Assembly (NCBI GenBank): GCA_031256235.1
Contig: JAIRQZ010000009.1
Location: 1-47,779, forward strand
Direction of reading: 5' to 3'
DNA from: Christensenellaceae bacterium
GTDB lineage: Bacteria > Bacillota > Clostridia > Christensenellales > UBA1242
Length of the DNA: 47,779 bases
Part shown: piece by piece, positions 2,228-43,792 of the stretch
How positions within the stretch are numbered: the stretch's first letter is position 1
Layout: every line of letters starts with the position of its first letter
Position numbers and translations under genes: made by a program
Notes under the pieces: model-generated
Database searches by the model: none
Told to the model about the DNA's origin: nothing
The model's input: only the letters and a program-made list of their open reading frames with translations

Positions 2228-2254
2228 AAAATATATTACCACACCGCCAGTACA

Positions 2255-3921: not shown

Positions 3922-3949
3922 ATCCTATTATACTCCATATATTACCTTT

Positions 3950-4528: not shown

Positions 4529-4644
4529 AAAATCCTCCTAAAACTCTTTCGAATTAGCCCAATACGGGTTAACTATATTATATACGAATAACGATGATAA
4601 ACAAACTAAAATCGTGACTTTTATGTAGAAAGTATCTATTTTGA

Positions 4645-4678
4645 TGACACCAATTTTGGCACTTATTTTTTACACTAT
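4645..4678. repeat. Island-flanking imperfect direct repeat, clpP-side copy
   Basis: tgacaccaattttggcacttattttttacacta aligns with 13460-13493 at 27 of the first 33 positions. The core is tgacacNNattttggcact. Confidence 0.45.
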
Positions 4679-4775
4679 TTCAAAAGTGCCGTATAAATTT
4701 TATCGTATTTATACAGTCATTCTTTAGATTAGACGTGTTACCTATGGCAAACAGCACATTAGGACAAAACTTTTC

Positions 4776-4797
4776 AAACCAGCAACCGCTGGTTTTT
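4776..4797. terminator. Hairpin terminator at the distal end of the island operon
   Basis: AAACCAGC-aacc-GCTGGTTT has an A-run on one side and a T-run on the other (bidirectional form). It starts 6 nt past the stop of the last operon gene. Confidence 0.4.
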
Positions 4798-4802
4798 ACA
4801 TA

Positions 4803-5123
4803 TCAAAAAGGAGACACTTGACTAGGATTTTTACCTCTTGAATGGATAATAAGATCACAAACTATTGATTGAACGACCGCTTCATTACCTGTCACAATAG
4901 TTTTCACACGTCCTTCGTTCCTATTGTACTCGACGTCAACTTTGTAGTGAGAAATCTTTGTCTGCCATTTTTTGTTTTCTAAATGCCTTTTCAATGCACC
5001 GCATAGAGTTCGTTCGGATACATCGTCATAAAATAAGTCTTTGTCTATTTTCAAAAAAGAAGCATTTGCCTTTTCAAATAAGTCTAACAAAAATTCATAG
5101 TCTTCGTCACAATCGTAGTTCAT
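4803..5123 (-). CDS. Small protein with a partial PD-(D/E)xK nuclease-like pattern (last gene of island operon)
   Basis: SERTLCGALKRHLE ... YKVDVEYNR ... VCDLIIHSRG resembles helix-E plus the (P)D strand of restriction-endonuclease-fold proteins. The ORF ends 12 aa later without an (D/E)xK strand. The ATG at 5123 has SD aaggaaa; the ORF track starts at a TTG at 5147. Confidence 0.3.
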   Translation of the reverse strand: MNYDCDEDYEFLLDLFEKANASFLKIDKDLFYDDVSERTLCGALKRHLENKKWQTKISHYKVDVEYNRNEGRVKTIVTGNEAVVQSIVCDLIIHSRGKNPSQVSPF

Positions 5124-5133
5124 TATTTTCCTT

Positions 5134-5556
5134 TTATCTTTGTACAATTCCTAAATAGGATTCTTTATATCCATAATACCTCTTCAAATAAACAGCAGTA
5201 TTCATAACTGAAGCAAATGCAAAAACCGGAAGAGCCGATTTCATATTAAATAACAAACCTGCCCAAATATACGCAGAAAATGAAACATTAACCGTAAATA
5301 CAGGAAAAGCAAAATAGCATATTATATCAATAATTACAGAGTAGATTAGAATGGATACAGACCTTACTATCTGATTATTGAATCTTTTAAGCGCCAGTGA
5401 CACAAAGTAAATAACACCTAAATTGAGGAATAAAAATGGTATTGTATTTGCTGTTGACGTACAGAATAAATAAACAGCCAGAATTGCAAGCGCTCCATAA
5501 CCTATAAACTTGTTTTTTTGTGCTACCCCATACATTAGGAAACCTGATATTGGCAT
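5134..5556 (-). CDS. Small polytopic membrane protein (4-5 TM), possibly an ECF S-component-like vitamin-binding subunit
   Basis: Hydrophobic helices run throughout. A strong SD agggagga lies upstream. It sits directly downstream of a DUF4430 gene. The function is inferred from context only. Confidence 0.35.
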   Translation of the reverse strand: MPISGFLMYGVAQKNKFIGYGALAILAVYLFCTSTANTIPFLFLNLGVIYFVSLALKRFNNQIVRSVSILIYSVIIDIICYFAFPVFTVNVSFSAYIWAGLLFNMKSALPVFAFASVMNTAVYLKRYYGYKESYLGIVQR

Positions 5557-5570
5557 TTGTTAATCCTCCC

Positions 5571-6020
5571 TTAATACCCCCAGTAAGATGCGTCCACATA
5601 TCTTAAAACAATCACATCGCCGTCCTTCACTCGGTATGCAGAAACACCGACTGCTGCTTGCTGAAAGTTTACTTCAAATGCCCAAGCGTACCCTGTTCCA
5701 GCACCCCAATCATAGTTGTCATCCTTGCCCATCGCAGAAGTAATTAACATACCGTAACTTGACTCTGTGTATCCAAGTTGCATAACTGATTTATTCTCTT
5801 TTAAAATATCCGCAACTAGATTTGATTTATAATCTTTTGAACTTATGAACTTAATCTCCACCGCACTTTCGTCTAAAATTGAGATACTAATATTTTTAAC
5901 TGCAACTTTGGGAGCAGGTATCAATGTCCAAATCATTAATCCAACCAAAACAACTGCCAAAGCAATATTAATATATAACGATATTTTACTTGGTCGCTTG
6001 TTTTGTGGTTGATTATCCAT
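5571..6020 (-). CDS. Membrane-anchored DUF4430 (transcobalamin beta-domain-like) protein
   Basis: It has an N-terminal TM anchor (ISLYINIALAVVLVGLMIWTLI). The C-terminal GYAWAFEVNFQQAAVGVSAYRVKDGDVIVLRY matches the DUF4430 signature GWxYxVNGxxxxxGxxxYxLKDGDxIxWxY. Its start overlaps the rSAM stop (ATGGATAA). Confidence 0.6.
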   Translation of the reverse strand: MDNQPQNKRPSKISLYINIALAVVLVGLMIWTLIPAPKVAVKNISISILDESAVEIKFISSKDYKSNLVADILKENKSVMQLGYTESSYGMLITSAMGKDDNYDWGAGTGYAWAFEVNFQQAAVGVSAYRVKDGDVIVLRYVDASYWGY

Positions 6021-7902
6021 TGTTTCTCCCTTTAATTTTGTCTTCAGTATCTTTTCTTGTGAAAGTATAATACTTTAACACCTTAAGGATATCCTTGTCA
6101 TCCGTTAGCGAGCTTATATCAGAAAAATTATTTTTTTCAACTATCCCCTTAAGTATTGATAGTTTTTCTTCTGGAAGCGCCCTGTAATCTCTCCACCACC
6201 TTCCGGTGCCACCATTTTTTTTGTTCTCTTCGCGGTAGATAATAAACGCTTCTGGCATATAAAGTATTTTCTCAAATTCTTTTTCGTCTTTGCCAAATGC
6301 TACTTCAAAGAACCTCTTACCTTTTCCTATCTTCCCTTTTGTTGAATTTAGCACTGCTTGTATTGCTCTAATAAACTTACGGTTCCAATGTTTGCCAGTA
6401 TACTTGCGGTCTTTGTAGCTCCACTCATCTTCTTTCCCTTTGCCTGTGATAGGATGATATTTCATAGGAAATGAAAAAATACTGACCTTAAGTTCCTCAC
6501 AAAGGTCAATATTTAGCTTCATGCGCAAAAATAGTTCCTCCGGTTTATCGTTAAAGTTGTAAAGCATGTAATTTGAAAGTTCACGTATTCCACTTTTTGC
6601 AGCCATACGAACAGATGCTTCATATGTTTCTTTGCCAGCCCATTGGTCAAATGCAATGCGCAGTGGTGAGATATTTGTTTCGGCCAGCTTGTCCATTTTC
6701 TCTTGAGTAATAAGACGTGCGTCTACCCCTTGGTTAAAATCAATAATTCTTTTCAATGGTCCACGTTTAAAATACTTTGCAAAGAGTGGCGACATAAAGC
6801 TATCAAGCTCAAGTATTTTTTCCTTTGATGCCGAAAGATAATCACTACAAAATGCTCCGTTAATTTTGGATTCTGCTTCAGCGACTACGTCCTGCTTATC
6901 AAGTTTGGTCAATTTTTTTATTAGTTCTTTATATAAATCAACGCATACTCGAATGTATGCTCGCTCGTTAAAATTATCTCGTAAGTTTTTTATTGCAATC
7001 TCGTATTTGCTTTCAGGAATATAGGTCGCGCCGTGCTGAAAACCGCAACGTTTTATTTCATCAATAATATTTGAATAACACTTTGAAGCAAGCACATTAT
7101 TATCAAGCAAAAGCAAGTTCCGTTGTTCACCAAACCGCTCTTTTGATTTTGCAATTGTTTTTTCAAGCCCGATATAATGCTTAAACTCTGGCTCAAGCTT
7201 TGGTACAGCACAAAAACCACATTTATTTGTACACCCACGAGTCATATAAGCAAAGTAAGCGTCGTGCGCTGGGTACTTATACTCAACTTCTTCCAAAATC
7301 GAATAATCAAGAGGTAATTCATCAATTATGTTCGTATCACCTTCATCAATGATACCAGGCTTATCTAATTGCCTTTCGAATGGTCTGATCCCTGTTTCTA
7401 GTTCAATTTCGTCAGGTAATAAGGATGCCATTATTCCACCAACCATTATCCGTCCGTCTGGCTTTCGAAATTTGTTTGCAAAGTTTATTGTTTCAATAGT
7501 TTTACTCCAATAAAATGTAAAAAGTGTTGTAACGCCCACGAAATCATAGACCGGATTATTTTTTATATAATCCTTATTTTTGAAGTTCTTTCTTGATGTT
7601 TGAATTTGTTCGACAATCTCACTTGACAAAATTTTGCAGATAAAATCAAAATCTTCATTTTTACCATGGCGAATAAACCTAAAAAAAAGCGGCTCTTGGC
7701 CGCACCAAGATTTGTCTGCCATGGTACACAATTGTTCCATAAAACGGTCGTATATAACTTCAGCACGAAGATCAAGTTCGCTACCCTTAAAAAAACGCAC
7801 ATCATCACCGCGCTCTCGAAAATAAGTCGCAAGTTTCATCAACCCCATCGGTGGGTACTTGTTGCGATAGTTAGGTTCGATTAAAAGCACTTTTCTTTTC
7901 AC
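6013..7902 (-). CDS. Radical SAM enzyme with N-terminal B12-binding-like domain (class B type)
   Basis: The N-terminus VLLIEPNYRNKYPPMGLMKLATYFRERGDDV is a Rossmann-like B12-binding-domain pattern. The CxxxCxxC cluster is MTRGCTNKCGFCAV. It is 629 aa long with a long uncharacterised C-terminal region. The GTG start overlaps the upstream stop (TAGTG) and has SD aaggag. Confidence 0.8.
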   Translation of the reverse strand: MKRKVLLIEPNYRNKYPPMGLMKLATYFRERGDDVRFFKGSELDLRAEVIYDRFMEQLCTMADKSWCGQEPLFFRFIRHGKNEDFDFICKILSSEIVEQIQTSRKNFKNKDYIKNNPVYDFVGVTTLFTFYWSKTIETINFANKFRKPDGRIMVGGIMASLLPDEIELETGIRPFERQLDKPGIIDEGDTNIIDELPLDYSILEEVEYKYPAHDAYFAYMTRGCTNKCGFCAVPKLEPEFKHYIGLEKTIAKSKERFGEQRNLLLLDNNVLASKCYSNIIDEIKRCGFQHGATYIPESKYEIAIKNLRDNFNERAYIRVCVDLYKELIKKLTKLDKQDVVAEAESKINGAFCSDYLSASKEKILELDSFMSPLFAKYFKRGPLKRIIDFNQGVDARLITQEKMDKLAETNISPLRIAFDQWAGKETYEASVRMAAKSGIRELSNYMLYNFNDKPEELFLRMKLNIDLCEELKVSIFSFPMKYHPITGKGKEDEWSYKDRKYTGKHWNRKFIRAIQAVLNSTKGKIGKGKRFFEVAFGKDEKEFEKILYMPEAFIIYREENKKNGGTGRWWRDYRALPEEKLSILKGIVEKNNFSDISSLTDDKDILKVLKYYTFTRKDTEDKIKGRNNG

Positions 7903-9464
7903 TATGAAAACTCCTTTTCAATCATTGCTAATATTCTTTGATTTGCTTCTGCATCAACATTAATTGCAATAATATCAAGTATTTTCCCTATAATTTTGCG
8001 CTCTACTTTACTACATCTTTTTAATCTATCGGTCCACCAAGCCTTTTTATTCTTATTATCTTCATTTGTTTCTCCCACACTTTTCTCAACTATATTTGCA
8101 TCACGATGTGTTCTTATTATATTAGCAACTTTACCTTGCAACGAGTCTTCCTCTAGACTTTCAATCTTCTTTCTAATATCTGTTTCAGCCTTCTCGGCAT
8201 TCGCCCTTATTTCAGCAAGTTCGCTTTCAAGTTTGTTTTTTTCAGCATTCCCAACAAAAGAATTCTCTTTTTTCTTTTTATCAAATTCTTTCTTTTTAAT
8301 GTTATATATTTCGATTTTTTTGTAAGAGCTGTTTATAGATGATGCGTTGTAATAAGTTCTATAGAGCTCGTCGTCAAAATATTTTTTGAGTTCAACTTCA
8401 AACTTCTCGCTCGAAGAATTAGTGTTAAAATAATCACGCTGCGAATTAGGTATTAAGTTTTTATCTATTGTAAAAACTTCACCAATAAAATAATTATTGC
8501 CTCTGTCTTCTTTAAATAATTTTTCCAAAGCGTTTTCATCGCCAATTTGGATGTTTTCTTTTCTAAGCCTTATTCCTCGCATTTTGTTTGACTTTGGAAT
8601 GGCTTGTTTAAACTGGCAAACTCCAATCCATGACCAAGCAATTAAACTTTTATCGTCACTGTAAAAACCCTTGAACGCAATATCCTTGACCTCGTCATAC
8701 TTTTTCTCACCATTTGTTAAGTGCGTAATGTATTTTTTATAAACATCTTCACCATTTATTTTAACAATATATTCATCAATTGGATACCCTATTTCCTTTG
8801 CTTGCTTGTAAATCTCTTCACGAAATCTAAATGTGTTTTGATAAGGAACAGGTGCTACAAATGATAGATATTCTTTAACTTTAATAATGTTTAATAAACC
8901 ATTATTGTGTTTGTCAATATTCTCTAATTTTACAACAAAAAAATGGCTTTCAGTATTCTCCGTTTTTTCTGAACTGAAGGAGTAAATTTCTTTCAATATT
9001 TCGGTAGCACTATATTTTTTCTCTTTTGTTTGATGCTTGTTTAAGAGCTCACGCATTCTTTTGGCATCACAGGACATTGTTGAAATAATATTTTCACCCT
9101 TGCATTTTGTTGAAAAAACTAGTTTATCACAAAATGCCATTCCGCAAAGCCTTCCTATTCCACGAAATCCCTTATCTTCGCCAAGTGTTTTATCTGAACT
9201 TGCCACATTAACTAATATCCTTTGGAAATCATCTTTGGATATTCCTGTTCCGTTATCTTTAATTTCAATACTTTTTGCAGATTGGTCTATCCATATTTCA
9301 ACTAAACCCTCATTTTTATTAGAAATTATTTCTTGTTCAACTGCTTTATCAATAGAATCACAAGCATTTTGAATATATTCTCTATAACAAACGAAGGGAT
9401 TTTTATACATCCCTGTCGTTAAACTATCTAAAATATTCGCACCAAAAATAATTTGTTCTTCCAT
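7902..9464 (-). CDS. GHKL (Bergerat-fold) ATPase, MORC/Hsp90/MutL-like, with C-terminal coiled-coil
   Basis: It has N box EYIQNACDS, G1 box DNGTGIS and G2 box GFRGIGRLCG. The C-terminal region is Lys/Glu-rich heptad-like (NKLESELAEIRANAEKAETDIRKKIESLEE). Confidence 0.75.
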   Translation of the reverse strand: MEEQIIFGANILDSLTTGMYKNPFVCYREYIQNACDSIDKAVEQEIISNKNEGLVEIWIDQSAKSIEIKDNGTGISKDDFQRILVNVASSDKTLGEDKGFRGIGRLCGMAFCDKLVFSTKCKGENIISTMSCDAKRMRELLNKHQTKEKKYSATEILKEIYSFSSEKTENTESHFFVVKLENIDKHNNGLLNIIKVKEYLSFVAPVPYQNTFRFREEIYKQAKEIGYPIDEYIVKINGEDVYKKYITHLTNGEKKYDEVKDIAFKGFYSDDKSLIAWSWIGVCQFKQAIPKSNKMRGIRLRKENIQIGDENALEKLFKEDRGNNYFIGEVFTIDKNLIPNSQRDYFNTNSSSEKFEVELKKYFDDELYRTYYNASSINSSYKKIEIYNIKKKEFDKKKKENSFVGNAEKNKLESELAEIRANAEKAETDIRKKIESLEEDSLQGKVANIIRTHRDANIVEKSVGETNEDNKNKKAWWTDRLKRCSKVERKIIGKILDIIAINVDAEANQRILAMIEKEFS

Positions 9465-9479
9465 TGTTTACCTCTAATT

Positions 9480-11159
9480 TTACTTAAATTGCTTATATAT
9501 TGGTTTTGGGAATCTAACTTTTAATAAAGACCTGAATACTGGATTTTGCAAGATATACTCTCCTTGATCTAATCGTGTGAGCATATTCTTGTAAGTTGAA
9601 TGGATACTTGAATAACTACTTGTTGAGGTTTCTATTGAGTTTGTTCGCCCGTAAGCGTGTGTCGCACAGTTTCCAGTGACACGTTTGTGAATATCAGACC
9701 TAAACTGTTCTGCACCAAACAACACAACACCCAATGAACGACCTCTCTCTGCTACATCCAATATTCCTCTAAGTATAGGTGAATGCTTTGGCGCATCTGT
9801 GCCAGCATATTTATTTAATTCATCAATAAAAACAACAATACGCTCCGGTGGATTTACACCATGTTCCTCGCTGAAAACATCTTGCTTGAGGTCGTAAATA
9901 GTTCTTAAGCAATCACCGAAAACAAAAGCCTGCTTATCCTCCGCCAGCTTTGCAATATCTACAACAAAAACATCATTTGCTTTAATTTGCTTTAATTCGT
10001 CTTGCAAACGACATTCATTGTTTTGTTTGCTAAATCCATTTGCGAACATGCTATCGTTTTTAATAGCTTTTGAAACTATTCTTTTAAACTTGCGCCAACT
10101 CATAATTGAGATTTCATCTTTCTGTGATTTCGGGTCACCTTTCTGTGTCTTTTCAGAAACTTTATCTAAGAAATCCTGCCAAGTGTCAAGACCGTTAAAC
10201 TCACCATCGCCAATTATCTTTTCAATAATTGACTCCATTGTCTGCGTAGTATCATCAATATTTGCAAACATCATCTCGATGCTTTCTTTATCATCTTTAT
10301 ACAGATATTTATATTTCTTCAACTGTTGTGCTCTTATGTAATTATCAACATCGTCTTTACCCATGTATGTAGATTGACGCGAATCAGAGGACGCAGAGTA
10401 TGGGATAAAATATTTAACATTTTCGAACGGTTTATCGATTAAACCTAATCTTTTGTATTCTTCTTTTACCTTAACTGACGCATCGCTTTCGTTCTCTTTA
10501 TCAATGGCCAACAAATCTCTGCCCTTAACATTAAAAATTACAAAAGCAGTTTTGCGCGCATCTTCGTTTTGTTGATTATAATCTTGAATAGCTTTAAGCA
10601 AAAACATTGCGTATGAAGTTTTTGTAGCCAAACCAGAAATACCTGAAATATTCAAATGTGCTCCTTCTGGACCAAGTAGAAATTCACTATTAAGATGTAC
10701 TGGCAAGATAACTGGGTTTTCTGTTCCAGCATACATTTTTAAAGAACCGCAAAGTAATTTGTGTTCAATTTTGTCAAGACCTAATGCCTGTATGATTTCT
10801 TCTTCGGTAGCTAAATAAACCTTATCATTATTGTGAACAGGTGTTTCATTGCCTTTAGTATTAAATGAAACTTTTGCTTCTACATAATTCATACCTACTC
10901 GCAACGTCGGTTCCAGCAACTCTGTGTCGCCAAAATCCGAAGAAATGAAGTTAGTTAAGAAACTTTGTGCGTCAGTAATATGCAAAATATTTTCGATGAC
11001 ACCAAAAGTATGTGAACCATCTCTTCGTTCCACTTTTACAACATCAAAAGCGTGCAACCTTAGATCAGAGTTTGTCCAAAATTTGAACTCATCGATTGTG
11101 GTCGGATACTTCTCCGTCGCCAACACCTTACCAATTGCCACTTTAGTTTCTTTTCCCAT
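9480..11159 (-). CDS. HerA/FtsK-superfamily ATPase (HerA-like, DUF87-type)
   Basis: The N-terminal barrel-like segment is IGKVLA...FDVVKVER...TFGVIENI. It has a deviant P-loop NISGISGLATKTSYAMFLL, Walker B RIVVFIDELNKY and a downstream RSLGVVLFGAEQ...THAYGRT. The start is set at the ATG at 11159 with SD aaggaga; the ORF track extends to 11219. Confidence 0.65.
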   Translation of the reverse strand: MGKETKVAIGKVLATEKYPTTIDEFKFWTNSDLRLHAFDVVKVERRDGSHTFGVIENILHITDAQSFLTNFISSDFGDTELLEPTLRVGMNYVEAKVSFNTKGNETPVHNNDKVYLATEEEIIQALGLDKIEHKLLCGSLKMYAGTENPVILPVHLNSEFLLGPEGAHLNISGISGLATKTSYAMFLLKAIQDYNQQNEDARKTAFVIFNVKGRDLLAIDKENESDASVKVKEEYKRLGLIDKPFENVKYFIPYSASSDSRQSTYMGKDDVDNYIRAQQLKKYKYLYKDDKESIEMMFANIDDTTQTMESIIEKIIGDGEFNGLDTWQDFLDKVSEKTQKGDPKSQKDEISIMSWRKFKRIVSKAIKNDSMFANGFSKQNNECRLQDELKQIKANDVFVVDIAKLAEDKQAFVFGDCLRTIYDLKQDVFSEEHGVNPPERIVVFIDELNKYAGTDAPKHSPILRGILDVAERGRSLGVVLFGAEQFRSDIHKRVTGNCATHAYGRTNSIETSTSSYSSIHSTYKNMLTRLDQGEYILQNPVFRSLLKVRFPKPIYKQFK

Positions 11160-23080: not shown

Positions 23081-23381
23081 CTATGTACACATTTACCACG
23101 TTTTTAAGGTCTTTGTAAACGGCTTTGTCGACATTATTGTATGGCCATTCGATAAAGAACAAATTATCTCCGTGCAAAATTTCAAAAAAGTCGGTGTTGT
23201 ACAATTCGGATTGAGCCTTTATACGGTACAAATCCGCATGGAAGATGTTGGGAGCGTATTGATTTATGATTGTAAAGGTCGGGCTTGTTACGTTAACTTG
23301 GTCGCCCAAAATCGCGCGGACGACTTTTTGGGTAAACATAGTCTTGCCCGCCCCCATCTCCCCGTGTAAAAGTATTACCAC
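23052..23381 (-). CDS. tsaE: tRNA t6A biosynthesis ATPase TsaE (short form)
   Basis: It has LHGEMGAGKT (P-loop), SPTFTIINQY and ADLYRI. It starts at a GTG with a stop codon immediately upstream. Confidence 0.8.
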   Translation of the reverse strand: MVILLHGEMGAGKTMFTQKVVRAILGDQVNVTSPTFTIINQYAPNIFHADLYRIKAQSELYNTDFFEILHGDNLFFIEWPYNNVDKAVYKDLKNVVNVYIDEKHKVTFN

Positions 23382-23970
23382 GGTTTAATGGTAGCGCAAA
23401 AAGGCTTAATAGTGCAAACGAAAACATCACTGTTGCGATGACGATATAGTAAATGTTGAAGCGCACAAGGAAACTTGTTGCCAAGATTATAATGCCCATG
23501 AAGATGTAACTGCGGACTTTTTTGCGTTGAAAGGTCACAAATTTAAGCATTGTAAACATCATATGGGCGCGTGAACGGAATTGCAACAAGGTGATATTTT
23601 TCGACTTTGCGGACTTTTTCACGGCGGGAGAAAAAGATTTTGCCGCGATGTATGTGTTGGCTTCGCGGTCGGTTGCCGAGACACAGGCCTCAAGGTCAGA
23701 GGTTTTGGGCTCGGCTTTGAAAAGCGGGAACAGGTTGATTTTTTGGGTTTGTGTGTGGATGATATACTTTTTTTGCACAGGTACGGCGCGGATTTGGGCA
23801 ACGCGCTTTCGAGTTAATAACCAGTAAACCAAATTCACGGCCATCATAATCGTAAATGAAATCAAAAACACAAAAATAATATCGCGAAAATAAAACGACA
23901 GCCACAAATACGACAACAAAAACACGATGAACGAACGTGCAAGTAAATTACTTATCGATGCGATTCTCAC
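23293..23970 (-). CDS. Membrane protein, unknown function
   Basis: It has hydrophobic helices at both ends and a basic central region. The 3' end overlaps tsaE by 89 nt, so the true stop or frame of the tail is uncertain. Confidence 0.35.
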   Translation of the reverse strand: MRIASISNLLARSFIVFLLSYLWLSFYFRDIIFVFLISFTIMMAVNLVYWLLTRKRVAQIRAVPVQKKYIIHTQTQKINLFPLFKAEPKTSDLEACVSATDREANTYIAAKSFSPAVKKSAKSKNITLLQFRSRAHMMFTMLKFVTFQRKKVRSYIFMGIIILATSFLVRFNIYYIVIATVMFSFALLSLFALPLNRGNTFTRGDGGGQDYVYPKSRPRDFGRPS

Positions 23971-25072
23971 ACTTTAAGTATTGACAGATTTTGACTTGGA
24001 GTTTATCAATCGGCCTGTCCAAGTATTTTGCAAGCATCCAGTTTATTGTATAATTGTATATTATACCTATGACGAGGCAACTTGAAAAGACGATTGCGAC
24101 CGAATAAAGATTTTGCCAAATCGAACCATTTGTTACAAACCATTCTTTCCAAAACAAAGTGCGAAAGTTACGGGCTTCATGAATCAAGTACACGGTCAAT
24201 GTTCCAGCGGAGATTATGTTTATCGGTTTGAAACTGAATTTCAAATTTGCAAATACAACAAGCCACAATGTTGCCGACAAAATCACAAAAGGACCATGAA
24301 GTGCGGTGTCTCGATAACTTGAACAACAAATTGTTACGATTATTACCATAGTCACAACCAGTGAGATTGGTAAAATTATCAAATTATTTTTAAGAATTTT
24401 GTTTGGGTACAGGCGCAAGTAAGCCGCAATAAAATACAACAAAACAAATGTCATAAGGTCCGAATGGATATAAGGCGCATATGCAGACGTTTTAAAACAC
24501 TCGGATAAAATTTTTGGAAGAATACTTATGTAAAAGATACCTATTGCAAGTATTATTAAGTGGAGGCGAGGGCCCGTATTCCGAATTATGATATTTAAAA
24601 GTGGAAACATAAGGAACAAGAACACATATGGAATCATGAACCAGTTACTTGAGATGTAGGCGCGAAAGGTGTTTGGCGCAAGATGCATAAAGACTTTTAC
24701 TAAACTGTTGGGCGGATTAGTGTTGTTGTGGGCGAAGTAAAATATAAAAGCGATCACAAATGAAAAGAAGGATATTTGGAATAACAGTTTAAAAAGTTTT
24801 TTCAACTGGAATTTTGAAGTACACAAAAAATAGCCTGTGATTAAAACAAATACTGCGCAACCCCATTTCCCCCAAGAGCCAAGGAGTTCAAAACCGACAC
24901 CAAGTTTAGGTTTTTGCTTTGAAGGAACTGCGTATGTCCAATAATGGCTGAAAACAATCATCAACATCGCGATAAGGCGCAACAATTCTATTCCAGAATT
25001 ACGCGACCTTGGTTGGTTGGTTGGTTGGTTGGTTGGTTGGTTGGTTGGTTGGTTGGTTGGTTCATATGTCAC
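23948..25072 (-). CDS. Acyltransferase family 3 (OafA/OatA-like O-acyltransferase) membrane protein
   Basis: It has IELLRLIAMLMIVFSHY and about 10 TM helices. The N-terminal PTNQ x4 is encoded by the CCAA tract. The only in-frame start is a GTG at 25072. Confidence 0.8.
   Translation of the reverse strand: MTYEPTNQPTNQPTNQPTNQPRSRNSGIELLRLIAMLMIVFSHYWTYAVPSKQKPKLGVGFELLGSWGKWGCAVFVLITGYFLCTSKFQLKKLFKLLFQISFFSFVIAFIFYFAHNNTNPPNSLVKVFMHLAPNTFRAYISSNWFMIPYVFLFLMFPLLNIIIRNTGPRLHLIILAIGIFYISILPKILSECFKTSAYAPYIHSDLMTFVLLYFIAAYLRLYPNKILKNNLIILPISLVVTMVIIVTICCSSYRDTALHGPFVILSATLWLVVFANLKFSFKPINIISAGTLTVYLIHEARNFRTLFWKEWFVTNGSIWQNLYSVAIVFSSCLVIGIIYNYTINWMLAKYLDRPIDKLQVKICQYLKCENRIDK
25009..25062 (-). 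repeat. Tetranucleotide tract (CCAA)13 on the coding strand
   Basis: Thirteen perfect units were counted by hand (GGTT on the plus strand). They lie in codons 5-22 of the acyltransferase ORF. Confidence 0.95.
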
Positions 25073-25081
25073 ATTATATCA
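25073..25081 (-). promoter_or_regulatory. Extended -10 element TGaTATAAT upstream of the acyltransferase gene
   Basis: On the minus strand it reads TGATATAAT, directly followed by GTGACAT and then an ATG (25065-25063). Confidence 0.4.
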
Positions 25082-25095
25082 TAACATTTCAAGTT

Positions 25096-25902
25096 TTACG
25101 AGTCAATTTTTTTCAATTCGCGCTTTAGTCGGGCAATGATTTTCTTTTCAAGACGGCTTATATAGGATTGCGAGATACAAAGCATTTCGGCGACTTCTTT
25201 TTGCGTGCGCTCTTCGCCACCCGTATTGCCCAGGCCAAATCTCAATTGCATGATTTCTTGTTCGCGGATGCTTAAGCGGTTAATTGCAAGCCACAACAGA
25301 TTGCGTTCCACCCCAACGTCAAGTTCGTTTTGTACGTTGTCTTGGTCAACACAGATAACGTCGCCAAGGCGGATTTCGGTACCGTCGCTGTCCATATTAA
25401 TGGGCTCGTCAATGCTTACATCTCCCCTGTTTTTTAATACTTTGCGCAGGTGCATTAAAATTTCATTTTCAATGCAACGACTTGAATATGTTGCAAGTTT
25501 GATATTTTTTTCGTACTTGAAACTGTTGACGGCTTTGATAAGACCGATACTTCCGACACTTATTAAATCTTCGATGTCAAGGCCAGTGTTTTCAAACTTT
25601 TTGGCGATATAGACTACCAATCGCAGGTTGTGCTCGATTAACTTTTGACGGGTTTCGGGATATCCCAAATGAAGTTCCTGTAAAAGGGTTTCTTCTTCGT
25701 CCTTGGACAGCGGTTTGGCAAGGGCTTCGGTGCCGTTTATAAAGTATACGAAATTGTCATCCCATAACTTTGCGTTGGTGATTTTCTGAAACAAAGATTT
25801 TGCTCGGGCAAAAATACTGACATGTGAACGAGAGCCCATTACGCTGTTTTCAAATATGGTCATAGTGCAATGTATATTAACAAAGGGCAAGAAATATGAC
25901 AT
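25096..25902 (-). CDS. sigE: Sporulation sigma factor, SigE-like (with pro-sequence)
   Basis: [49 protein letters not shown] and [18 protein letters not shown] match the SigE/SigK group. It has an N-terminal extension and a spoIIGA gene nearby. The exact start is uncertain (Met at codons 1, 14 and 22). Confidence 0.75.
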
Positions 25903-25960
25903 TTTATTAAAACTCTTTGACTATTTTTGTCGGAAGTGTTAAACAATAGAAGAGGTTTAT

Positions 25961-27466
25961 ATGAAAAAACTTGCGATAATTTTATGTACGGTTATGCTTG
26001 CGGGAATTATAAGTTTCGCGGGCGGGATCCAAGCATTCGTTCACGCTTCGGCAAATTGGAACATCACAAACTACAAGGTCTTTTATATCGGGGCAAAAGA
26101 TGGCGTTTATAAAACGACCTCGCCCGCTTTATTCACAAAAACAGGTATCAATCCTTTGATCGCGGCGGAATTGATGAGAATTTTGAACGAAGTCGGCTTT
26201 GACGAAACAAAGACTGCCGAGGACTTTTCAAACTTTGCGCATAAAGGTGATAATTTGGACTTTCAAACTGGTGCAGTTTATATTCGGCTTTTCGACCGAT
26301 TGACAACATCGGGGACCGACGCAGTCAAGGCCTTTACGGGCAATGATGATGTCGGAGCGCGTTGGTGGCAGGCGGTTTACATGGGCAAAGACACCGTCGG
26401 CAACGACATATTGACGCTTATGATGGCCGAGCCTTACCGCGACAGCCCGTTCAGTGGCACGACCTATGCGACAAGCGCGGCAAGGGCAAATCTTTTAACG
26501 GATTTTGCAGGCGTTTTAAGTGCATATCCGAGTGCGAGTGCAACCATTGCGACGACCAATATTCCATGGCAAGTCGGCCAAGCAAATTCCGTAATAACTT
26601 TCGAGGATGACGAGGACGAGTTTCTTAACCCAGGTTTAAATTCGGACGACAAGGTCTGGTTGCCGTCGGTATACGAGACTTCGATTATGCCTGGCGTGGA
26701 TGACGAAAAGTTGGTTTCAAGCATTGATGCCGACGGCAATCTTGATGATTGGAACAGGACGGGTCTTTGGAAATTGAACGGTTTTGACAGGGGTTTTTTG
26801 CCAAGCGCAACGTATGGTGAAAGTTTGCTTCGGTCACTTTCGACAGACGGGGCTTTTGTGGGTACTTTGGACAGTTCGGACCCCAGTGCCATTTATTCTG
26901 AAGGCGGTCCATATCAAGCGGGCTTGCGGCCTTGCATAAACATCAAATTGTCGGCCATAAGAACAGCACAAATTTATGCGGGCTTTGCAGCAGGAAGCGC
27001 GGCGGCATGGGATGCAGGGGTAAGCACGACGGGCATTAACGGCACAAGCGGTAAAAGCATCAGCGTATTCGGAGGCGGGCTTGGCGATGTCGTGTCGATT
27101 ACTTACTTTTCGGGAAGCAGGCGCAAAATAAGCGGAATCACAATCAATGATATCGAGATAGCCATTGCGTCAAGTTTAAGCAAGGCCGAGTGGCAAGAAA
27201 CAATTACAGGTGCGAAGTTCCGTGCATGGTATGCAAATGATTCGGCTCAAATGGTCAAGGTAGAATTTAAAGATATCAACAACACAAACTTTACATATAA
27301 CACTCCTCTATTTGTTACCGCGACAACCGAAAAATGGACAGGTGGTGGCGGAAAGAAAAAGTTTGATGTTAAAACTTTCGGCTATGTCGCTGGTGGAATT
27401 GCGGTTGTGCTTGCAAGTGCTGCGGTTTTTGTTGCGCTCAAGTCACGAAAAAGTACCGAAGCCTAG
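25961..27466 (+). CDS. Secreted protein with C-terminal TM anchor
   Basis: It has a signal peptide (MKKLAIILCTVMLAGIISFAGG) and a C-terminal helix plus basic tail. It also has a VWLPS...LLRS...GLRPCINIKL pattern like surface-protein domains of the DUF6273 type. SD gaagagg. Confidence 0.55.
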   Translation: MKKLAIILCTVMLAGIISFAGGIQAFVHASANWNITNYKVFYIGAKDGVYKTTSPALFTKTGINPLIAAELMRILNEVGFDETKTAEDFSNFAHKGDNLDFQTGAVYIRLFDRLTTSGTDAVKAFTGNDDVGARWWQAVYMGKDTVGNDILTLMMAEPYRDSPFSGTTYATSAARANLLTDFAGVLSAYPSASATIATTNIPWQVGQANSVITFEDDEDEFLNPGLNSDDKVWLPSVYETSIMPGVDDEKLVSSIDADGNLDDWNRTGLWKLNGFDRGFLPSATYGESLLRSLSTDGAFVGTLDSSDPSAIYSEGGPYQAGLRPCINIKLSAIRTAQIYAGFAAGSAAAWDAGVSTTGINGTSGKSISVFGGGLGDVVSITYFSGSRRKISGITINDIEIAIASSLSKAEWQETITGAKFRAWYANDSAQMVKVEFKDINNTNFTYNTPLFVTATTEKWTGGGGKKKFDVKTFGYVAGGIAVVLASAAVFVALKSRKSTEA

Positions 27467-28113
27467 ACCAAATTAACATTTAACAACGCATCGTATTTGA
27501 TAGAGTCGCGAAAACTTTTGTACGAAAGCCCAAGGCGGACATTATCGTGTGAAATCTTTTGCTTGTTGTCGATTATCTCAAACTTTGCAGGGGCGAAAAC
27601 GAACATCTTGGCATCCGATTTATCCACAGTCGAAAAGTTTATATAATGCCCGTTTATTACTGGGAACATCTTTAAATACAACTTTAACGAAATGATTACG
27701 ACAGGTGCGTTGCTCTCGGGGTCAACAAGCCTGTTCCCTGTGTCAAGATACCCTTTTGTTTTGTACTCTTTGCCCTTGTATGTGATTATGCAGTCGCGCA
27801 AGTGCGTGGTTACGGCTTGGCGCATGCACATGAATTTGATAAGACCAGACATAACACACAGAAACATCACGGTCACAAAAACTTTTGTGGCCATAAGAAC
27901 AACTATTGCGACATAAAAAGTTTTCGGGTTGAAAATTGTCAAAAGCCCCATAGAGGCAAGCGGGACTACACACGCAAAAAGCATGCCAACAGTTATACAG
28001 ACGGCCATTTTCCACAAGACAAGTTTATGCTTGATGGTTTTAAAAAGGAATCCAAGCAACACGAAGTTTATTACAAGATTGTCTATGATTGCGTACTCGA
28101 CGTATATCGACAT
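27463..28113 (-). CDS. spoIIGA: Sigma-E processing aspartic peptidase SpoIIGA (short form)
   Basis: The N-terminus is IYVEYAIIDNLVINFVLL with about 5 TM helices. The catalytic motif is GYLDTGNRLVDPESNAPVVII. Confidence 0.7.
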   Translation of the reverse strand: MSIYVEYAIIDNLVINFVLLGFLFKTIKHKLVLWKMAVCITVGMLFACVVPLASMGLLTIFNPKTFYVAIVVLMATKVFVTVMFLCVMSGLIKFMCMRQAVTTHLRDCIITYKGKEYKTKGYLDTGNRLVDPESNAPVVIISLKLYLKMFPVINGHYINFSTVDKSDAKMFVFAPAKFEIIDNKQKISHDNVRLGLSYKSFRDSIKYDALLNVNLV

Positions 28114-29419: not shown

Positions 29420-30622
29420 TTAGTCGCGCCAAATAAACTGCGTATCGGCGACCTGCACGGTATCACCGTCAATCATGCCAAGATTTTTTAATGCTTCAAT
29501 CACTCCGCTTTTATCAAGTCGGCGGTGGAAGTATGCCGCGGACTCGGTGTCAGAAAGGACCACGCCACGGATTAGGTTGTCAATCATTGGGCCCGTTGCG
29601 GTATAGACTCCTTCTGCGTCGACAAAGACTTCAAATTTGTTTTTGTCGATGGCCACTTCCAAAATCGCGGTGGTTTGGCTTTCGTTAGGTTTCGGCAAAA
29701 GACTTACCTGCTTGGCGATGTGGTTCATAAGTTCGTCGATACCTTCTCGTGTGGCGCACGAGATATAAAAGTCACAGCCTTTGATTTTTTCATTGACATC
29801 AATTTTGTTTTGGACAAGGATTCGGGGCCTTTTTACAAGGTCGGAAGAAAAATTTTCAAGTTCCTTTTTGATGATTTGGATTTGGGATTCTTCTTCGATT
29901 ATATGGACAAGCAAACGAGTGCGGTTGATGTGTTTCAAAAAGTCTATACCAAGGCCGACGCCGTTACTTGCGCCTTCAATAAGGCCAGGAATATCGGCAA
30001 AGATTATGGTTTGTGAACCTTTTGAATATACTCCAATGTTCGGGTGCAGGGTCGTGAACGGGTAATTTCCGATTTTGGGGTTTGCTCGACTTACAATGGA
30101 TAGCAACGAACTTTTGCCCACATTCGGGAAACCAACAAGGCCGACATCAGCGATACAGTTTAATTCAAGCACCACCGTATGCATTGCGGTCGTGATGCCG
30201 TGTTGTGAAAAATTTGGAGTTTGGCGCCGTGCGGTTGCGTACTTTGCGTTGCCTTGGCCTCCTCCGCCACCACGCAATGCAAGGTATTTTTGGTCTTTTT
30301 CAACTATGTCGGCAAGTAACCCGCCGTCCATATTCAATACCTTTGTTCCCAAAGGCACGTGTATCTCAAGGTCTTTGCCGTTGGAACCGCTTTTGTTCAT
30401 TGGGCGACCGTTGATGCCGTCTTCGGCCTTGAATTCGTGATTGTATCGAAAGTCAATCAAGTTGTCTGCACGGGTAGAGCCAATGAAAACTATGTCGCCG
30501 CCTTTACCACCGTCTCCTCCATTTGGGCCACCACGTTGGGTGTTTTTGTCGCGAAGAAACGATGTGTGGCCGTTGCCACCGTTGCCTGCTTTTATTTTTA
30601 TCTCGACTCTGTCAATGAACAT
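29420..30622 (-). CDS. obg: GTPase Obg
   Basis: It has the glycine-rich Obg fold (GGNGGNG...GGDGGKGG), G motifs GFPNVGKSS and DIPGLIEGA, and a C-terminal OCT domain. Confidence 0.95.
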   Translation of the reverse strand: MFIDRVEIKIKAGNGGNGHTSFLRDKNTQRGGPNGGDGGKGGDIVFIGSTRADNLIDFRYNHEFKAEDGINGRPMNKSGSNGKDLEIHVPLGTKVLNMDGGLLADIVEKDQKYLALRGGGGGQGNAKYATARRQTPNFSQHGITTAMHTVVLELNCIADVGLVGFPNVGKSSLLSIVSRANPKIGNYPFTTLHPNIGVYSKGSQTIIFADIPGLIEGASNGVGLGIDFLKHINRTRLLVHIIEEESQIQIIKKELENFSSDLVKRPRILVQNKIDVNEKIKGCDFYISCATREGIDELMNHIAKQVSLLPKPNESQTTAILEVAIDKNKFEVFVDAEGVYTATGPMIDNLIRGVVLSDTESAAYFHRRLDKSGVIEALKNLGMIDGDTVQVADTQFIWRD

Positions 30623-30675
30623 AATGTATCATAACATGATTGACAATTTTCGCAAAAGAGTTTATACTACAACCG

Positions 30676-31110
30676 ATGAATAATTATTTTGAAGTGCAAA
30701 TTGAATATGAAAACGCTACTGATAAACCAACACTTTGTGGGGTTTTGGAATTTGAAAACGACGTGCGTGCTATAAAAGATGGCGACAAAGGCAAATTTAT
30801 AAAACAATTCAAAGGCATCGTTGATGGAAAAGGCGTTTTGGGGCATATGGAAATGAGCCCTTACAATTCAACATTGCAATTCAGAAAATTTGCAAAAGAC
30901 CACGCGTCATCGGTGTTCAGTTTAAAAACAAACAGGGACTTTGTATTCAGTGGCACCTGTGATACATCGGGAACCAAACAACCCGAAAACGTAAGTTTTA
31001 CAAAGTTTGTTTGCTTGTCCGACGAAGAGGTCCAAGAAAAAGGCATCAAAGAAACTTTGAACAAAGGTTATAAAGAAATCGGATTCGGTTTAGAGCGTGA
31101 ATTGTCGTGA
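30676..31110 (+). CDS. Hypothetical protein, paralogue A of a tandem pair
   Basis: It shares YFEVQIEY, LEFENDVR and LSDEEVQEKGIKETLNKGY blocks with the next gene. The ORF track starts at a TTG at 30640. Confidence 0.45.
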   Translation: MNNYFEVQIEYENATDKPTLCGVLEFENDVRAIKDGDKGKFIKQFKGIVDGKGVLGHMEMSPYNSTLQFRKFAKDHASSVFSLKTNRDFVFSGTCDTSGTKQPENVSFTKFVCLSDEEVQEKGIKETLNKGYKEIGFGLERELS

Positions 31111-41029: not shown

Positions 41030-43720
41030 TTACTTTTTTTTGCCGTCGCCCGAGAGTGCGTATGCAAGGCCCGAGCCCAAAGTTGCGATAACAAAGACGC
41101 CAAGGAGAACCGACCAGATGATGATTTTTTTGATGTCTTTGCCACCGGTAGGGACTTCTTCGACGCCTTTCCAAATGTTGTCGCGGTCGATGGTGTCGCC
41201 TTCGTCGCCGTCGTCGGGTTCGGGTTCGGTGATAGGTTCATCGGGGTCTTCGGTTTCGGGGCCAGTCAATCCCAAAAGTTTGATTGTTGTGCCGTCGTTC
41301 CAAATCAAATATGGGATGTCCCCATCGGTGTTGCTACCATGTGAAGGATTGTGAAGCGGTGAGTTACTTAATGCCCAAATGTTCAGGACAGTAACAGTTT
41401 CTTCCTCGGTAAGGCCTTGGATAGCGACACCGTTGCCGATTGCCTTGTTAAGGCAGGCCTCGACCAACGCGATTTCGACAGGCGTGATTTGGTCTTCGGG
41501 TTCCAAAGTTTCGTTATATTCGGCGACAGTATTCAAATAGTTTTGAACAAAGTTAGCGATATAGTTTGTAGCATAGTTGTCCTTGAATGTTTGAAGTTTT
41601 TCGGGTGTGTTTACGGGTTCCCAGTACTTTTCAGCAAGGGCAAACAAAAGGTTTGGGACATTACCTTGAGCGTCGATTAATGCCGAGTCGTCTGGATAAA
41701 CTTCCTTGAAGACTTTTTTAACATCGTTAATGGGGAGCCTATCAAACTGTTCCGCATTCATTGGACGTTGATAGAACGGAACCCAATCGACAGGTTGGTC
41801 GAAGTAACCTTCCACGGCATACAATGCACTCAGTTGTTGCATGTGTTGCGCAGCATTTACACCAGCCCAGTTTGTGGCAGTTGTTGTAGGAAATGCCGAG
41901 GTTTTCAATATTTTGTATAACTCTTCAGTTACCCATACTGGTGTATTTGGAACACTGTTAACACCATAATATTCCCTTTCATAGAATTGTTCGAGGTACG
42001 TTTTTTGGTAATAGTAGTTATTACCAAGCGTACTGAATATCGCAGTAGACATTACGTAGTTTGATGCGATGAATTGTTCCTTGAAGGATGCGATTAATTC
42101 TTCCCTGTATGCCTTGTTAATAACATTGGTCATGTCGAACGTATAATAAAGATTGTCTTGGTTGTTTAAAAAGAACGTAAGTTTTGCTTCCATGGTCGTA
42201 ACACTACCACAAACGCTATGCACATTGTCGCCCTCGCCGATAACCTGCCCATCGTTCAATACGTTAGTGACAACTGTAGCACCCAACCCTGCTTGTCCCA
42301 CAACACCACCAACAAAATCAGCACCCGTTACGTCACCAGTATTTTGTGAATTAGTGATGTGCACATTAGCGTCTCCGACGATACCGCCTATTTGGTTGCC
42401 CGTCCCAGTTACATCTCCCGAATTGACACAATTGACGCATCCTCCGGTAGACGAATAATACGCGCCCGCGATGCCACCCACCTTGTTCTTCCCGCTGACA
42501 TCACCAGAATTCCAACAGTTAGCCACGTCGCCATAAACCCATCCCGCAATACCGCCTACGCCGTTGTATTCGCTGTTAGGTGCACTTATGTCACCCACGT
42601 TAAAGCAATTTTCAATGTTGATACCGTTGTTCGCCATCCCGACGATACCACCCACGTAGCCTTTGTCATTCGAGACTGGTGCCTCATTGCTACAATTTCT
42701 GATGATACCAGCGAACCCGCCACCACAAATACCGCCCGCATACATTGACGCACCAAGCGTTAAAGTCCCATAGTTGTGGCAATTTTCAATTACAGAACCC
42801 GGCAAACCATTTCCCCAATATCCGATGATACCACCCGAATAACCGTTGTTTGTATTTTCACGCGTGATGTCGCCATAATTGATGCAATTTGATATTTTTG
42901 TTAAAATCCCCGACGAAATGTATGAAATGATGCCTGCAAGATAACTTACATTTGTTCCCGATTTTGCAATAATTCGTCCACGGAATGTACAGTCTTTGAG
43001 TGTTACGGAAGGAGTAGAGGAACCTGCGTCAAAAGCAATTCCAGCCCCCCCCAAAGATGTGCCGTCGACATGTACATTTTCAACATAGAGCCCACGAGGG
43101 CTGGTCTGGCTACCTGTATCTGGGTCCCAATAAGAACTGCCATAGGCTGTTCGTAATAAGGCGCCTGCATTCGCTTTGGTTATGTAAACATTTTTGAGGT
43201 TAAGGTTTTTCACAGAGAGCCCACAACCTTGTACGACGCCAAAGAGTCCGTCGCCATACATGCCATAAATCGTGTGTCCGTTGCCATCAAAATTTCCACA
43301 AAAGCTATTTGGACCAATCTCGGCCCATTTATTAAGGTGACTGTCGTCGAAACCTTCGGTTCCCCACATATCATAATCCGAGATATCGTTAAGATAGATG
43401 TCATTGGTAAGAATGTAATGAATGCTACTGTCGCGTTTGGTGTATTTTTTTTCAATGTCGCCGTACTGTTTTGACGCCCATTGCAGGAAGGCCAACTCGG
43501 CACCGTTTGAAATCCTGTACGGATTCGATTCGGTGCCGATGTCGGTTGGCATTAATTCCGGGTCGGCGGTTTCATTTGCAAACCTTTCGGCAATGTCCCC
43601 CGACCAAATTGTCGCCGCGTTTGTGTTGCCTGCCTCGATTCCAACGAACACCGCGCAAAGCGATGCAAGTATAAAACAGACCGATGCAACAATAGCAGAA
43701 AAGAGTCTTGTGTTTTTCAT
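41030..43720 (-). CDS. Large surface protein with GLUG-motif repeats, signal peptide and C-terminal TM anchor
   Basis: It has repeated GGIAG / GGIVG ... N(C/S)xNxGDV(S/T)G units, the signal peptide MKNTRLFSAIVASVCFILASLCA (start at 43720 with SD agggaga), an acidic stalk and a C-terminal TM helix. Confidence 0.7.
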   Translation of the reverse strand: MKNTRLFSAIVASVCFILASLCAVFVGIEAGNTNAATIWSGDIAERFANETADPELMPTDIGTESNPYRISNGAELAFLQWASKQYGDIEKKYTKRDSSIHYILTNDIYLNDISDYDMWGTEGFDDSHLNKWAEIGPNSFCGNFDGNGHTIYGMYGDGLFGVVQGCGLSVKNLNLKNVYITKANAGALLRTAYGSSYWDPDTGSQTSPRGLYVENVHVDGTSLGGAGIAFDAGSSTPSVTLKDCTFRGRIIAKSGTNVSYLAGIISYISSGILTKISNCINYGDITRENTNNGYSGGIIGYWGNGLPGSVIENCHNYGTLTLGASMYAGGICGGGFAGIIRNCSNEAPVSNDKGYVGGIVGMANNGINIENCFNVGDISAPNSEYNGVGGIAGWVYGDVANCWNSGDVSGKNKVGGIAGAYYSSTGGCVNCVNSGDVTGTGNQIGGIVGDANVHITNSQNTGDVTGADFVGGVVGQAGLGATVVTNVLNDGQVIGEGDNVHSVCGSVTTMEAKLTFFLNNQDNLYYTFDMTNVINKAYREELIASFKEQFIASNYVMSTAIFSTLGNNYYYQKTYLEQFYEREYYGVNSVPNTPVWVTEELYKILKTSAFPTTTATNWAGVNAAQHMQQLSALYAVEGYFDQPVDWVPFYQRPMNAEQFDRLPINDVKKVFKEVYPDDSALIDAQGNVPNLLFALAEKYWEPVNTPEKLQTFKDNYATNYIANFVQNYLNTVAEYNETLEPEDQITPVEIALVEACLNKAIGNGVAIQGLTEEETVTVLNIWALSNSPLHNPSHGSNTDGDIPYLIWNDGTTIKLLGLTGPETEDPDEPITEPEPDDGDEGDTIDRDNIWKGVEEVPTGGKDIKKIIIWSVLLGVFVIATLGSGLAYALSGDGKKK

Positions 43721-43792
43721 TGTGTTAGTTTCTCCCTTTATCACAAATTTAACACCCTTTTTGTATTTTGTCAAGCGGTTTCAGCATCTTTT

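Follow-up and report, generated by a model that had tools for sequence, protein, structure and literature searches.

A contig of 47,779 nucleotides from a Christensenellaceae bacterium (JAIRQZ010000009.1, assembly GCA_031256235.1) was analysed over its full length; this 47.8-kb stretch is referred to below as the window. On its minus strand, just downstream of a SigE-like sporulation sigma factor gene, it carries a gene for a membrane O-acyltransferase that consists of an acyltransferase-3 (AT3) domain alone. A tract of CCAA units stands in the 5' end of this gene, and an earlier note on the window had proposed that slipped-strand changes in the tract switch the enzyme on and off at translation. 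The tract, its reading frames, the start codons and promoter-like elements in front of it, the conservation of the protein, the genomic context and the occurrence of similar designs elsewhere are described here, and the features of the locus are collected in Table 1.

Table 1. Features of the AT3 locus, in coordinates of the window
Feature	Position	Strand	Basis or remark
SigE-like sporulation sigma factor gene	25096..25902	-	NCBIfam best match SigE, 319.8 bits, just below the 339-bit equivalog cut-off
-35 hexamer of P1, TTGACT, inside the last sigE codons	25101..25106	-	promoter scan
Extended -10 of P1, TGtTATGAT; mRNA would begin at or next to the GTG	25078..25086	-	promoter scan
Extended -10 of P2, TGaTATAAT, no -35, overlaps P1 with a 5-nt offset; mRNA would begin at or next to the ATG	25073..25081	-	
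GTG start; enzyme in frame at n = 10/13/16; the 13-unit allele gives 374 aa	25070..25072	-	ORF list, in-silico unit series
ATG start; enzyme in frame at n = 11/14/17	25063..25065	-	in-silico unit series
TGA shutting the third frame directly before the tract, overlapping the ATG	25062..25064	-	sequence
AA(CCAA)13 tract, proposed slippage-prone switch	25009..25062	-	Tandem Repeats Finder, regular expression, sequence
R24 codon, three codons past the tract, in frame with the enzyme body	25001..25003	-	alignment A2
TAG ending the ATG-frame peptide of the 13-unit allele	24988..24990	-	sequence, unit series
Internal TTG, codon 30, start chosen by the database gene caller (345-aa P0001)	24983..24985	-	judged not to be the native start
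R32-X10-H43, essential AT3 motif of transmembrane helix 1	24944..24979	-	regular expression on the protein
AT3-only membrane O-acyltransferase gene, 374 aa from the GTG	23948..25072	-	Pfam PF01757
Low-GC accessory insertion of about 1.15 kb (promoter, tract, AT3 gene)	23948..25103	-	comparison with relative L125

The CCAA tract and the three reading frames

The order of the elements on the minus strand, as read directly from the sequence, is TGTTATGATATAAT-GTG-ACAT-ATG-AA-(CCAA)13-GGTCGCGTAAT. That thirteen perfect CCAA units (25009-25060) plus AA occupy this place, in codons 5-22 of an AT3 gene, had been stated in the earlier note and was confirmed by Tandem Repeats Finder, a regular-expression search, the open reading frame (ORF) list and Pfam. 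Tandem Repeats Finder returned a single array at 25009-25062 with a period of 4, 13.5 copies, 100% matches and a score of 108. The 52 bp of the thirteen units are perfect at the DNA level and show no synonymous drift. No other tetranucleotide repeat of three or more units was found in the window by the regular-expression scan; (CCAA)13 is therefore far beyond chance, and it is the sole notable simple repeat of the 47.8 kb.

The number of units (n) was varied in silico from 9 to 18 and the frames were read out. The tract yields PTNQ repeats in each of the three frames, (PTNQ)4 in that of the enzyme, and contains neither internal stops nor internal starts. It can be seen from Table 1 that one class of unit numbers, to which the sequenced allele belongs, joins the enzyme to the GTG and that another joins it to the ATG, in agreement with the previous calculation that 11, 14 or 17 units would bring the ATG into the enzyme frame. 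In the 13-unit allele the ATG frame terminates after 25 codons (TAG 24990-24988), likewise as calculated before, and encodes the peptide MNQPTNQPTNQPTNQPTNQGRVILE. In the remaining class (n = 9, 12, 15 or 18) both ORFs are cut down to 16-34 aa, and the enzyme body is left without an upstream start. The positions given previously for TGaTATAAT (25081-25073), the GTG (25072-25070) and the ATG (25065-25063) were all correct when read on the minus strand. The ATG had also been described as the only one at the locus, which did not hold as worded, for there are others at 25074, 25082 and 25087; each of these meets a stop within one to three codons, and the ATG at 25065 is the sole one that opens into the tract.

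The enzyme and the need to translate the tract

The product matches Acyl_transf_3 (PF01757) with an E-value of 1.6e-19 and 70.6 bits, against a cut-off of 31, over profile positions 2-323 of 326; NCBIfam gave no name for the protein. In AT3 proteins an R-X10-H motif in transmembrane helix 1 (TMH1) is absolutely conserved, and an RXXR motif on the cytoplasmic face of TMH3 is highly conserved (PMC9833829). The former is found here as R32-LIAMLMIVFS-H43. The position equivalent to the latter is occupied by K-L-F-K (residues 92-95), and most homologues of the subfamily have K/R-K-x-x-K there. In an alignment of 41 homologues (A2), R24, H43 and P157 were invariant, and E29, L30 and R32 were conserved in at least 90%. 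There is no start codon in the tract or in the three codons that separate it from R24. Because the invariant R24 sits only three codons downstream of the tract with no start between them, translation of the enzyme must, to judge from this conservation, cross the tract.

The nearest homologue (P0002) is 43% identical, has no repeat and lies in a different gene context. The repeat is absent from 39 of the 40 aligned homologues, and the single exception, P0034 on contig L126, has a short CCAA/CAAA tract of its own. That the PTNQ repeat might be a fixed feature of the protein, a case for which the earlier note had allowed, is made less likely by these homologues. An AlphaFold2 model (predicted local distance difference test score, pLDDT, 86; predicted template-modelling score, pTM, 0.87) was all-helical with about ten long helices; residues 1-15 were disordered and TMH1 began at residue 26. 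The model suggests that the PTNQ peptide forms a flexible tail, changes in the length of which should be tolerated. When the fold was searched against the PDB, the only high-probability matches were to human HGSNAT, a transmembrane acetyl-CoA transferase, and these were weak (E 0.07-0.3, TM score about 0.4). The enzyme is predicted to acylate a cell-surface glycan; no genes of glycan synthesis that would point to the substrate were found among its neighbours.

Promoter-like elements and leaderless geometry

Two overlapping promoter-like elements precede the start codons. The better-formed one, P1, reads TTGACT-N17-TATGAT (-10 hexamer at 25083-25078), with ten of twelve matches and a TG extension, and the GTG lies 5 nt past its -10. 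The same P1 nonamer, TGTTATGAT, is also found 5 nt ahead of the obg ATG at 30622. The other, P2, places the ATG at 25065 7 nt past its TATAAT, and the same arrangement, TATAAT-N7-ATG, occurs at 37524 and 30676. No GGAGG-like Shine-Dalgarno (SD) motif was found ahead of the start codons of the AT3 gene. Both the GTG and the ATG therefore have leaderless geometry, as judged by their spacing, and the AT3 mRNAs are probably leaderless.

This arrangement was compared with the starts of the other genes. In the window, 18 of the 51 genes have a -10-like box 5-7 nt before the first start codon, whereas among all ATG triplets only 7.6% have one, and an SD precedes only about one third of the 51. The same pattern was observed in two relatives, L122 and L125 (8 of 26 and 10 of 23 genes in the two contigs). 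Window starts with a leaderless-like layout include those at 40766, 33452, 30622, 30676, 13383, 14748, 36255, 37524 and 2227; at 40766, 13383, 30676, 36255 and 37524, for example, a TTGAC-type -35, a 17-nt spacer and a -10 are followed after 5-7 nt by the start. A Pribnow box about 6-8 nt before the start, with no SD, defines the leaderless-rich group C of GeneMarkS-2, to which 36 of 1064 Firmicutes genomes (3.4%) belong (PMC6028130). About one third of the genes of this organism thus appear to be leaderless, which would be unusual for Firmicutes. A leaderless-rich lineage of Clostridia bears on annotation and on how translation starts in Firmicutes, and gene callers probably mis-start many such genes.

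The idea of a leaderless geometry at the AT3 gene, put forward in the earlier note, was strengthened by this comparison. The same note had supposed that the GTG probably lies upstream of the transcription start, if P2 is the promoter used, and that the sequenced state may be OFF, or ON only by read-through from sigE; it had overlooked the second extended -10, which overlaps the first, together with its -35, and this part of its proposal needs correction, as P1 puts the GTG just past a -10. Because P1 gives the GTG the leaderless layout that is common among genes of the window, we infer that initiation at the GTG makes the 13-unit allele more likely to be ON than OFF, at a level that perhaps differs from that of the ATG state. 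Leaderless initiation in mycobacteria requires an ATG or GTG at the 5' end of the mRNA and nothing beyond it (PMC4633059). No terminator-like site was found within 23800-26100, and thus none between sigE and the AT3 gene; therefore, read-through transcripts from sigE, which are possible, may add to the expression.

A further arrangement of this kind was observed at obg (29420-30622, minus strand) and a divergent ORF of 144-156 aa (30640-31110, plus strand), which are separated by a gap of 17 bp. Each promoter-like element of this pair lies inside the first codons of the other gene, which fits bidirectional leaderless transcription.

The AT3 gene lies on an accessory insertion

The gene upstream of the tract had been named sigE, and its best NCBIfam match (Table 1) and the presence of a SpoIIGA gene nearby bear this out. 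The other neighbours are also housekeeping or sporulation genes, coding for SepF, Obg, ClpC, McsB, RecJ, RNase J, a MurF-like ligase and TsaE. ClpC of the window is 76% identical to metagenomic proteins and at most about 60% identical to those of named 'Firmicutes', 'Clostridia' and 'Christensenellaceae' metagenome-assembled genomes (MAGs). Because of these neighbour genes and ClpC matches, the host is taken to be an uncultured, endospore-forming Clostridia lineage.

Within these genes the insertion sits between sigE and a conserved ORF (23293-23970), which is followed by tsaE. In the relative L125 (ClpC 73% identical) the order is sigE, 19 nt, an ORF of 267 aa and tsaE, and the 267-aa ORF is orthologous to 23293-23970 (E 1e-44). 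The homology to L125 stops near 25104 and picks up again at 23947. Relatives L122 and L123 are likewise without an AT3 gene after sigE. The GC content of the 1.15-kb insertion is 36.7%, against 43.2% elsewhere. From this comparison, the AT3 gene is an accessory single-gene insertion that is absent from the relatives L122, L123 and L125. An invertible promoter and mobile-element borders were also considered and were rejected, as there are no inverted or direct repeats at 23948/25104 or 24986/25096.

Recurrence of the 5' CCAA design

The GTDB species genomes were scanned for (CCAA)10, and at least 120 loci (L002-L121) were found across many phyla. Among the matches listed are the genera that would be expected, namely Haemophilus, Moraxella, Mannheimia, Histophilus and Neisseria, and also Paenibacillus, Weissella, Lachnospiraceae, gut Clostridia MAGs, Bacteroidota and others. 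At least 51 of the tracts are close to the 5' end of long ORFs; among the matches listed, 42 of 51 have CCAA in the sense orientation. By Pfam, the genes with a 5' tract among these matches code for DNA methylases, restriction enzymes, TonB-receptor plugs, S-adenosylmethionine-dependent methyltransferases, GT2 glycosyltransferases and, in two cases, AT3 proteins. Among these matches, 5' CCAA tracts are thus found on the usual repertoire of contingency genes.

The two AT3 genes come from different gut bacteria. In the gene of Ca. Caccoplasma, a ruminant-gut Bacteroidales MAG (L114; Pfam AT3 E-value 2.6e-31), an ATG is followed by four codons, (CCAA)14, about seven codons and R-E-S-G-L-D-I-I-R. 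In that of a mouse-gut Lachnospiraceae (L101; 1e-28), an SD and a TTG precede (CCAA)12, after which N-R-N-S-L-L is read; contigs of four independent sequencing runs end inside this tract, about 28 nt in, even at a depth of 4.5-5.8x, and shorter alleles did not appear among them. The distant homologue P0034 on L126, which lies in a polysaccharide gene cluster, begins ATG-AGC-CAC-AA(CCAA)6(CAAA)3 before I-R-Q-S-N-I-E-L-L-R. In all three, as in the window, the CCAA tract of an AT3 gene lies between a start codon and the conserved Arg of TMH1, only a few codons from either. The window protein shows no BLASTP similarity to that of L101 (E 0.64) and 23% identity to that of L114. The four AT3 genes thus appear to be at least partly independent carriers of a tract at the same structural position. 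The starts are different: L101 has an SD and a single TTG, L114 has a single ATG, and the two-start, two-promoter layout of the window is seen in none of L101, L114 and L126. No description of these three AT3 tracts was found in the literature. Taken together, AT3 genes with 5' CCAA tracts may represent a module that recurs among gut Clostridia and Bacteroidales and has evolved independently in them.

Three other points emerged from the scan. Paenibacillus appears among the matches listed with several species, and in some of these with two or more loci. In Weissella cibaria SP7, (CCAA)14 stands at the 5' end of a gene for a D12-class, Dam-type DNA methyltransferase (L094 2801-3684; Pfam 4.6e-64), which makes this methylase a candidate for phase variation (a phasevarion) in a lactic acid bacterium. 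Some of the (CCAA)10 matches may be contamination or repeat proteins, e.g. the Metamycoplasmataceae MAG loci L019, L033 and L073.

Comparison with known switches

One of the closest known counterparts is oafA of H. influenzae, an AT3 O-acetyltransferase of lipooligosaccharide that is switched by an intragenic GCAA tract (PMC9558356, PMC10505976). Like the AT3 gene of the window, it codes for a membrane O-acyltransferase and has a tetranucleotide tract within the gene; it is an accessory modifier of a surface glycan, as is predicted for the gene of the window. The unit, in contrast, is GCAA instead of CCAA; oafA belongs to a Gram-negative pathogen with SD-led translation, whereas the window comes from spore-forming Clostridia of the termite gut with a probably leaderless mRNA; and switching has been demonstrated for oafA, while that of the window is a proposed one. 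Homology searches gave no oafA-like relative of the window protein.

A second start frame has its counterpart in lic1A, which, in a passage of PMC4019658 that cites Dixon et al. 2007, is given three potential start codons in two frames. As far as that passage describes them, lic1A and lic2A share with the window the starts in two frames upstream of the tract, so that two classes of repeat number allow expression, possibly to different extents, and the third does not. They differ in their CAAT unit, in their products (a choline kinase and a galactosyltransferase) and in their conventional leadered initiation, whereas in the window each start codon has its own overlapping -10 at a leaderless distance. 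The CCAA unit itself gates the hgp genes and one glycosyltransferase gene of H. influenzae, with 4-39 units between strains and typically hydrophilic repeat peptides (PMC2651432). These hgp genes and NTHI_1769 share with the window the unit, its sense orientation and a hydrophilic, uncharged peptide of the PTNQ type near the N-terminus; their products, in contrast, are TonB-dependent receptors or a glycosyltransferase from a different phylum, and the hgp tract comes after the signal peptide. In the full-text literature we found no description of a simple-sequence repeat switch on a leaderless mRNA, nor of a tetranucleotide contingency locus in termite-gut or other Clostridia.

A proposed translational switch and the alternatives

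The preferred explanation, to which we give a probability of about 0.6, is that an accessory AT3 membrane O-acyltransferase is here under the control of a simple-sequence contingency switch and that this switch operates in nature. The slipped-strand architecture proposed in the earlier note is supported, as the tract is unavoidably translated and changes of unit number toggle the frame as computed; to judge from its design, the tetranucleotide switch is well formed and probably functional. During replication (CCAA)13 would gain or lose whole units by slipped-strand mispairing. As the start codons come before the tract and the first invariant residue comes after it, each step of 4 nt would shift the frame of the enzyme. 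The enzyme would be read from GTG 25072 when n is 1 mod 3, as in the sequenced allele, and from ATG 25065 when n is 2 mod 3; when n is 0 mod 3, the frame would be closed by the TGA and have no start, which would be the OFF state. Transcription would come from a promoter region of the gene's own, in which each of two overlapping extended -10s lies 5-7 nt from one start codon. The GTG and ATG states would be expected to stand at different levels of expression and the third to be silent, a three-level form of bet-hedging that is plausibly aimed at phages reading surface glycans.

A bolder version holds that the length of the tract selects either P1 with GUG or P2 with AUG, giving a switch with weak, strong and off levels that works wholly on leaderless mRNAs; this we regard as tentative and rather doubtful. 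Two starts are known in principle from lic1A/lic2A, and here they appear to be used by way of two overlapping leaderless promoters. No precedent for two leaderless promoter/start pairs at any contingency locus was found in the literature.

Several observations weigh against these proposals. Promoter-like matches in the 2.3-kb region numbered 7 with 6.8 expected, which is not significant by itself. A leaderless GTG, efficient in mycobacteria, gives less than 10% of the activity of ATG in E. coli (PMC4633059). No second strain with the locus was found, as the look-up of the exact protein gave no record and a scan of Joint Genome Institute (JGI) metagenome contigs with the AT3 protein gave 143 pattern matches and 0 relatives. 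The window itself was found in one public termite-gut metagenome run (X1), and the locus in no RNA run. The Logan contigs of X1 (k=31) cannot span the tract, and no variation of its length was observed in them; they end at 24986 and 25096, that is, 22 and 33 nt outside it.

The Logan contigs also bear on whether the assembly is correct. The 109 nt between their ends (24987-25095), and with them the promoter-tract module, are present in no Logan contig, and the gap could result from low coverage, from graph cleaning beside a repeat node of about 100,000x, or from real heterogeneity of the module. An assembly artefact, with a false unit number or a false join across the tract brought about by the great abundance of (CCAA)n microsatellites in the termite metagenome, would agree with this gap and with the depth of about 100,000 over the tract in X1, which stems from unrelated CCAA-bearing contigs; by contrast, the contigs of the mouse-gut locus L101 do enter its tract. 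We consider this the least probable of the alternatives. The two flanks neighbour each other in L125, where sigE is followed by the orthologue of the downstream ORF and by tsaE, and this synteny argues against a chimeric join across the repeat. Moreover, the flanks have similar depths (8.3 and 6.5), the join is coherent, with promoter and starts on one side and an AT3 body lacking a start of its own on the other, and ordinary short reads span a 54-nt tract, so that the majority count should be recoverable. If the sequence is accepted, the gene caller of the database might still be right in starting P0001 at the internal TTG (24985-24983), in which case the tract would be part of a 5' leader or of a short upstream ORF and would not gate the enzyme. 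A weak GGA 3 nt upstream and the retention of the essential R32-X10-H43 pair are compatible with such a start. The TTG was nevertheless rejected as the native start and this alternative seems quite improbable, since the protein would lose R24, present in 41 of 41 homologues, and E29, and would keep 2 residues before the essential Arg where the homologue N-termini that were read have at least 13. Upstream of the TTG, and in frame with it, the conserved block R-x-S-G-I-E is still encoded; the TTG has neither a -10 box at leaderless distance nor a good SD, and a TTG gave no leaderless initiation in the sole system in which it was tried (PMC4633059). As a low-level bypass start the TTG is conceivable.

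Two other explanations deny the tract its role. In one of them, the gene is read from the GTG, its product has the PTNQ repeat as a fixed and harmless tail, and the tract is so stable that no switching of biological consequence takes place. The 374-aa ORF that the 13-unit allele opens at the GTG is indeed intact, and a tail predicted to lie disordered in the cytoplasm would probably be tolerated at various lengths. It remains unlikely in our view, because 52 bp without synonymous variation are a signature of recent slippage and not of selection on a peptide, because nearly all homologues lack the repeat, because CCAA tracts of similar length differ between strains of H. influenzae (PMC2651432), and because a second start codon with its own -10 stands in a second frame. 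Slightly less probable than the fixed tail is that the cassette was recently acquired and is poorly adapted or decaying, so that the tract is a mutational accident of horizontal transfer with no adaptive role. The low-GC single-gene insertion absent from relatives, the lack of an SD, the unusual start codons and the mere 43% identity of the best homologue would fit such a history. The ORF, however, is open for 374 codons in DNA of 37% GC with every invariant residue intact, its promoter is laid out like those at other gene starts of the host, which speaks for adaptation to this host, and the position of the tract recurs on other AT3 genes.

Tetranucleotide contingency loci are textbook examples for a few Gram-negative mucosal pathogens. 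If the proposed switch is real, a surface-glycan acyltransferase would be turned on and off at random also in uncultured, spore-forming Clostridia of the termite gut. Together with the cases from mouse-gut Lachnospiraceae and ruminant-gut Bacteroidales, it would then be a device of gut commensals in general, with phage pressure and not host immunity as the probable driving force. Such genes are also prone to be mis-started by gene callers, as here, where the called product is without an invariant residue, and the consensus sequences of MAGs conceal any mixture of ON and OFF alleles.

Other observations in the window and its relatives

Some further features were noted. ORF 41030-43774, which codes for a GLUG-motif protein of 914 aa, has a homopolymer of eight G residues on its coding strand (43045-43052), about 220 codons from the start. 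The window has no other G/C run of 8, and slippage could occur here as well, if more weakly than at the CCAA tract. In the relative L125, the region 1203-9522 upstream of clpC codes for an integrase, a Rep protein, a DpnII-type restriction-modification set and more methylases, and resembles an integrated element; it is not present in the window.

spoIIGA and sigE normally form one operon. In the window, spoIIGA (27463-28113, minus strand) and sigE (25096-25902, minus strand) are split by a gene on the opposite strand (25961-27466, plus strand), the product of which has 501 aa, no Pfam or NCBIfam match and a hydrophobic stretch near each terminus. An opposite-strand gene is found at the same site in the relatives L122 (20525-21178) and L125 (18570-20267), coding there for 217 or 565 aa.

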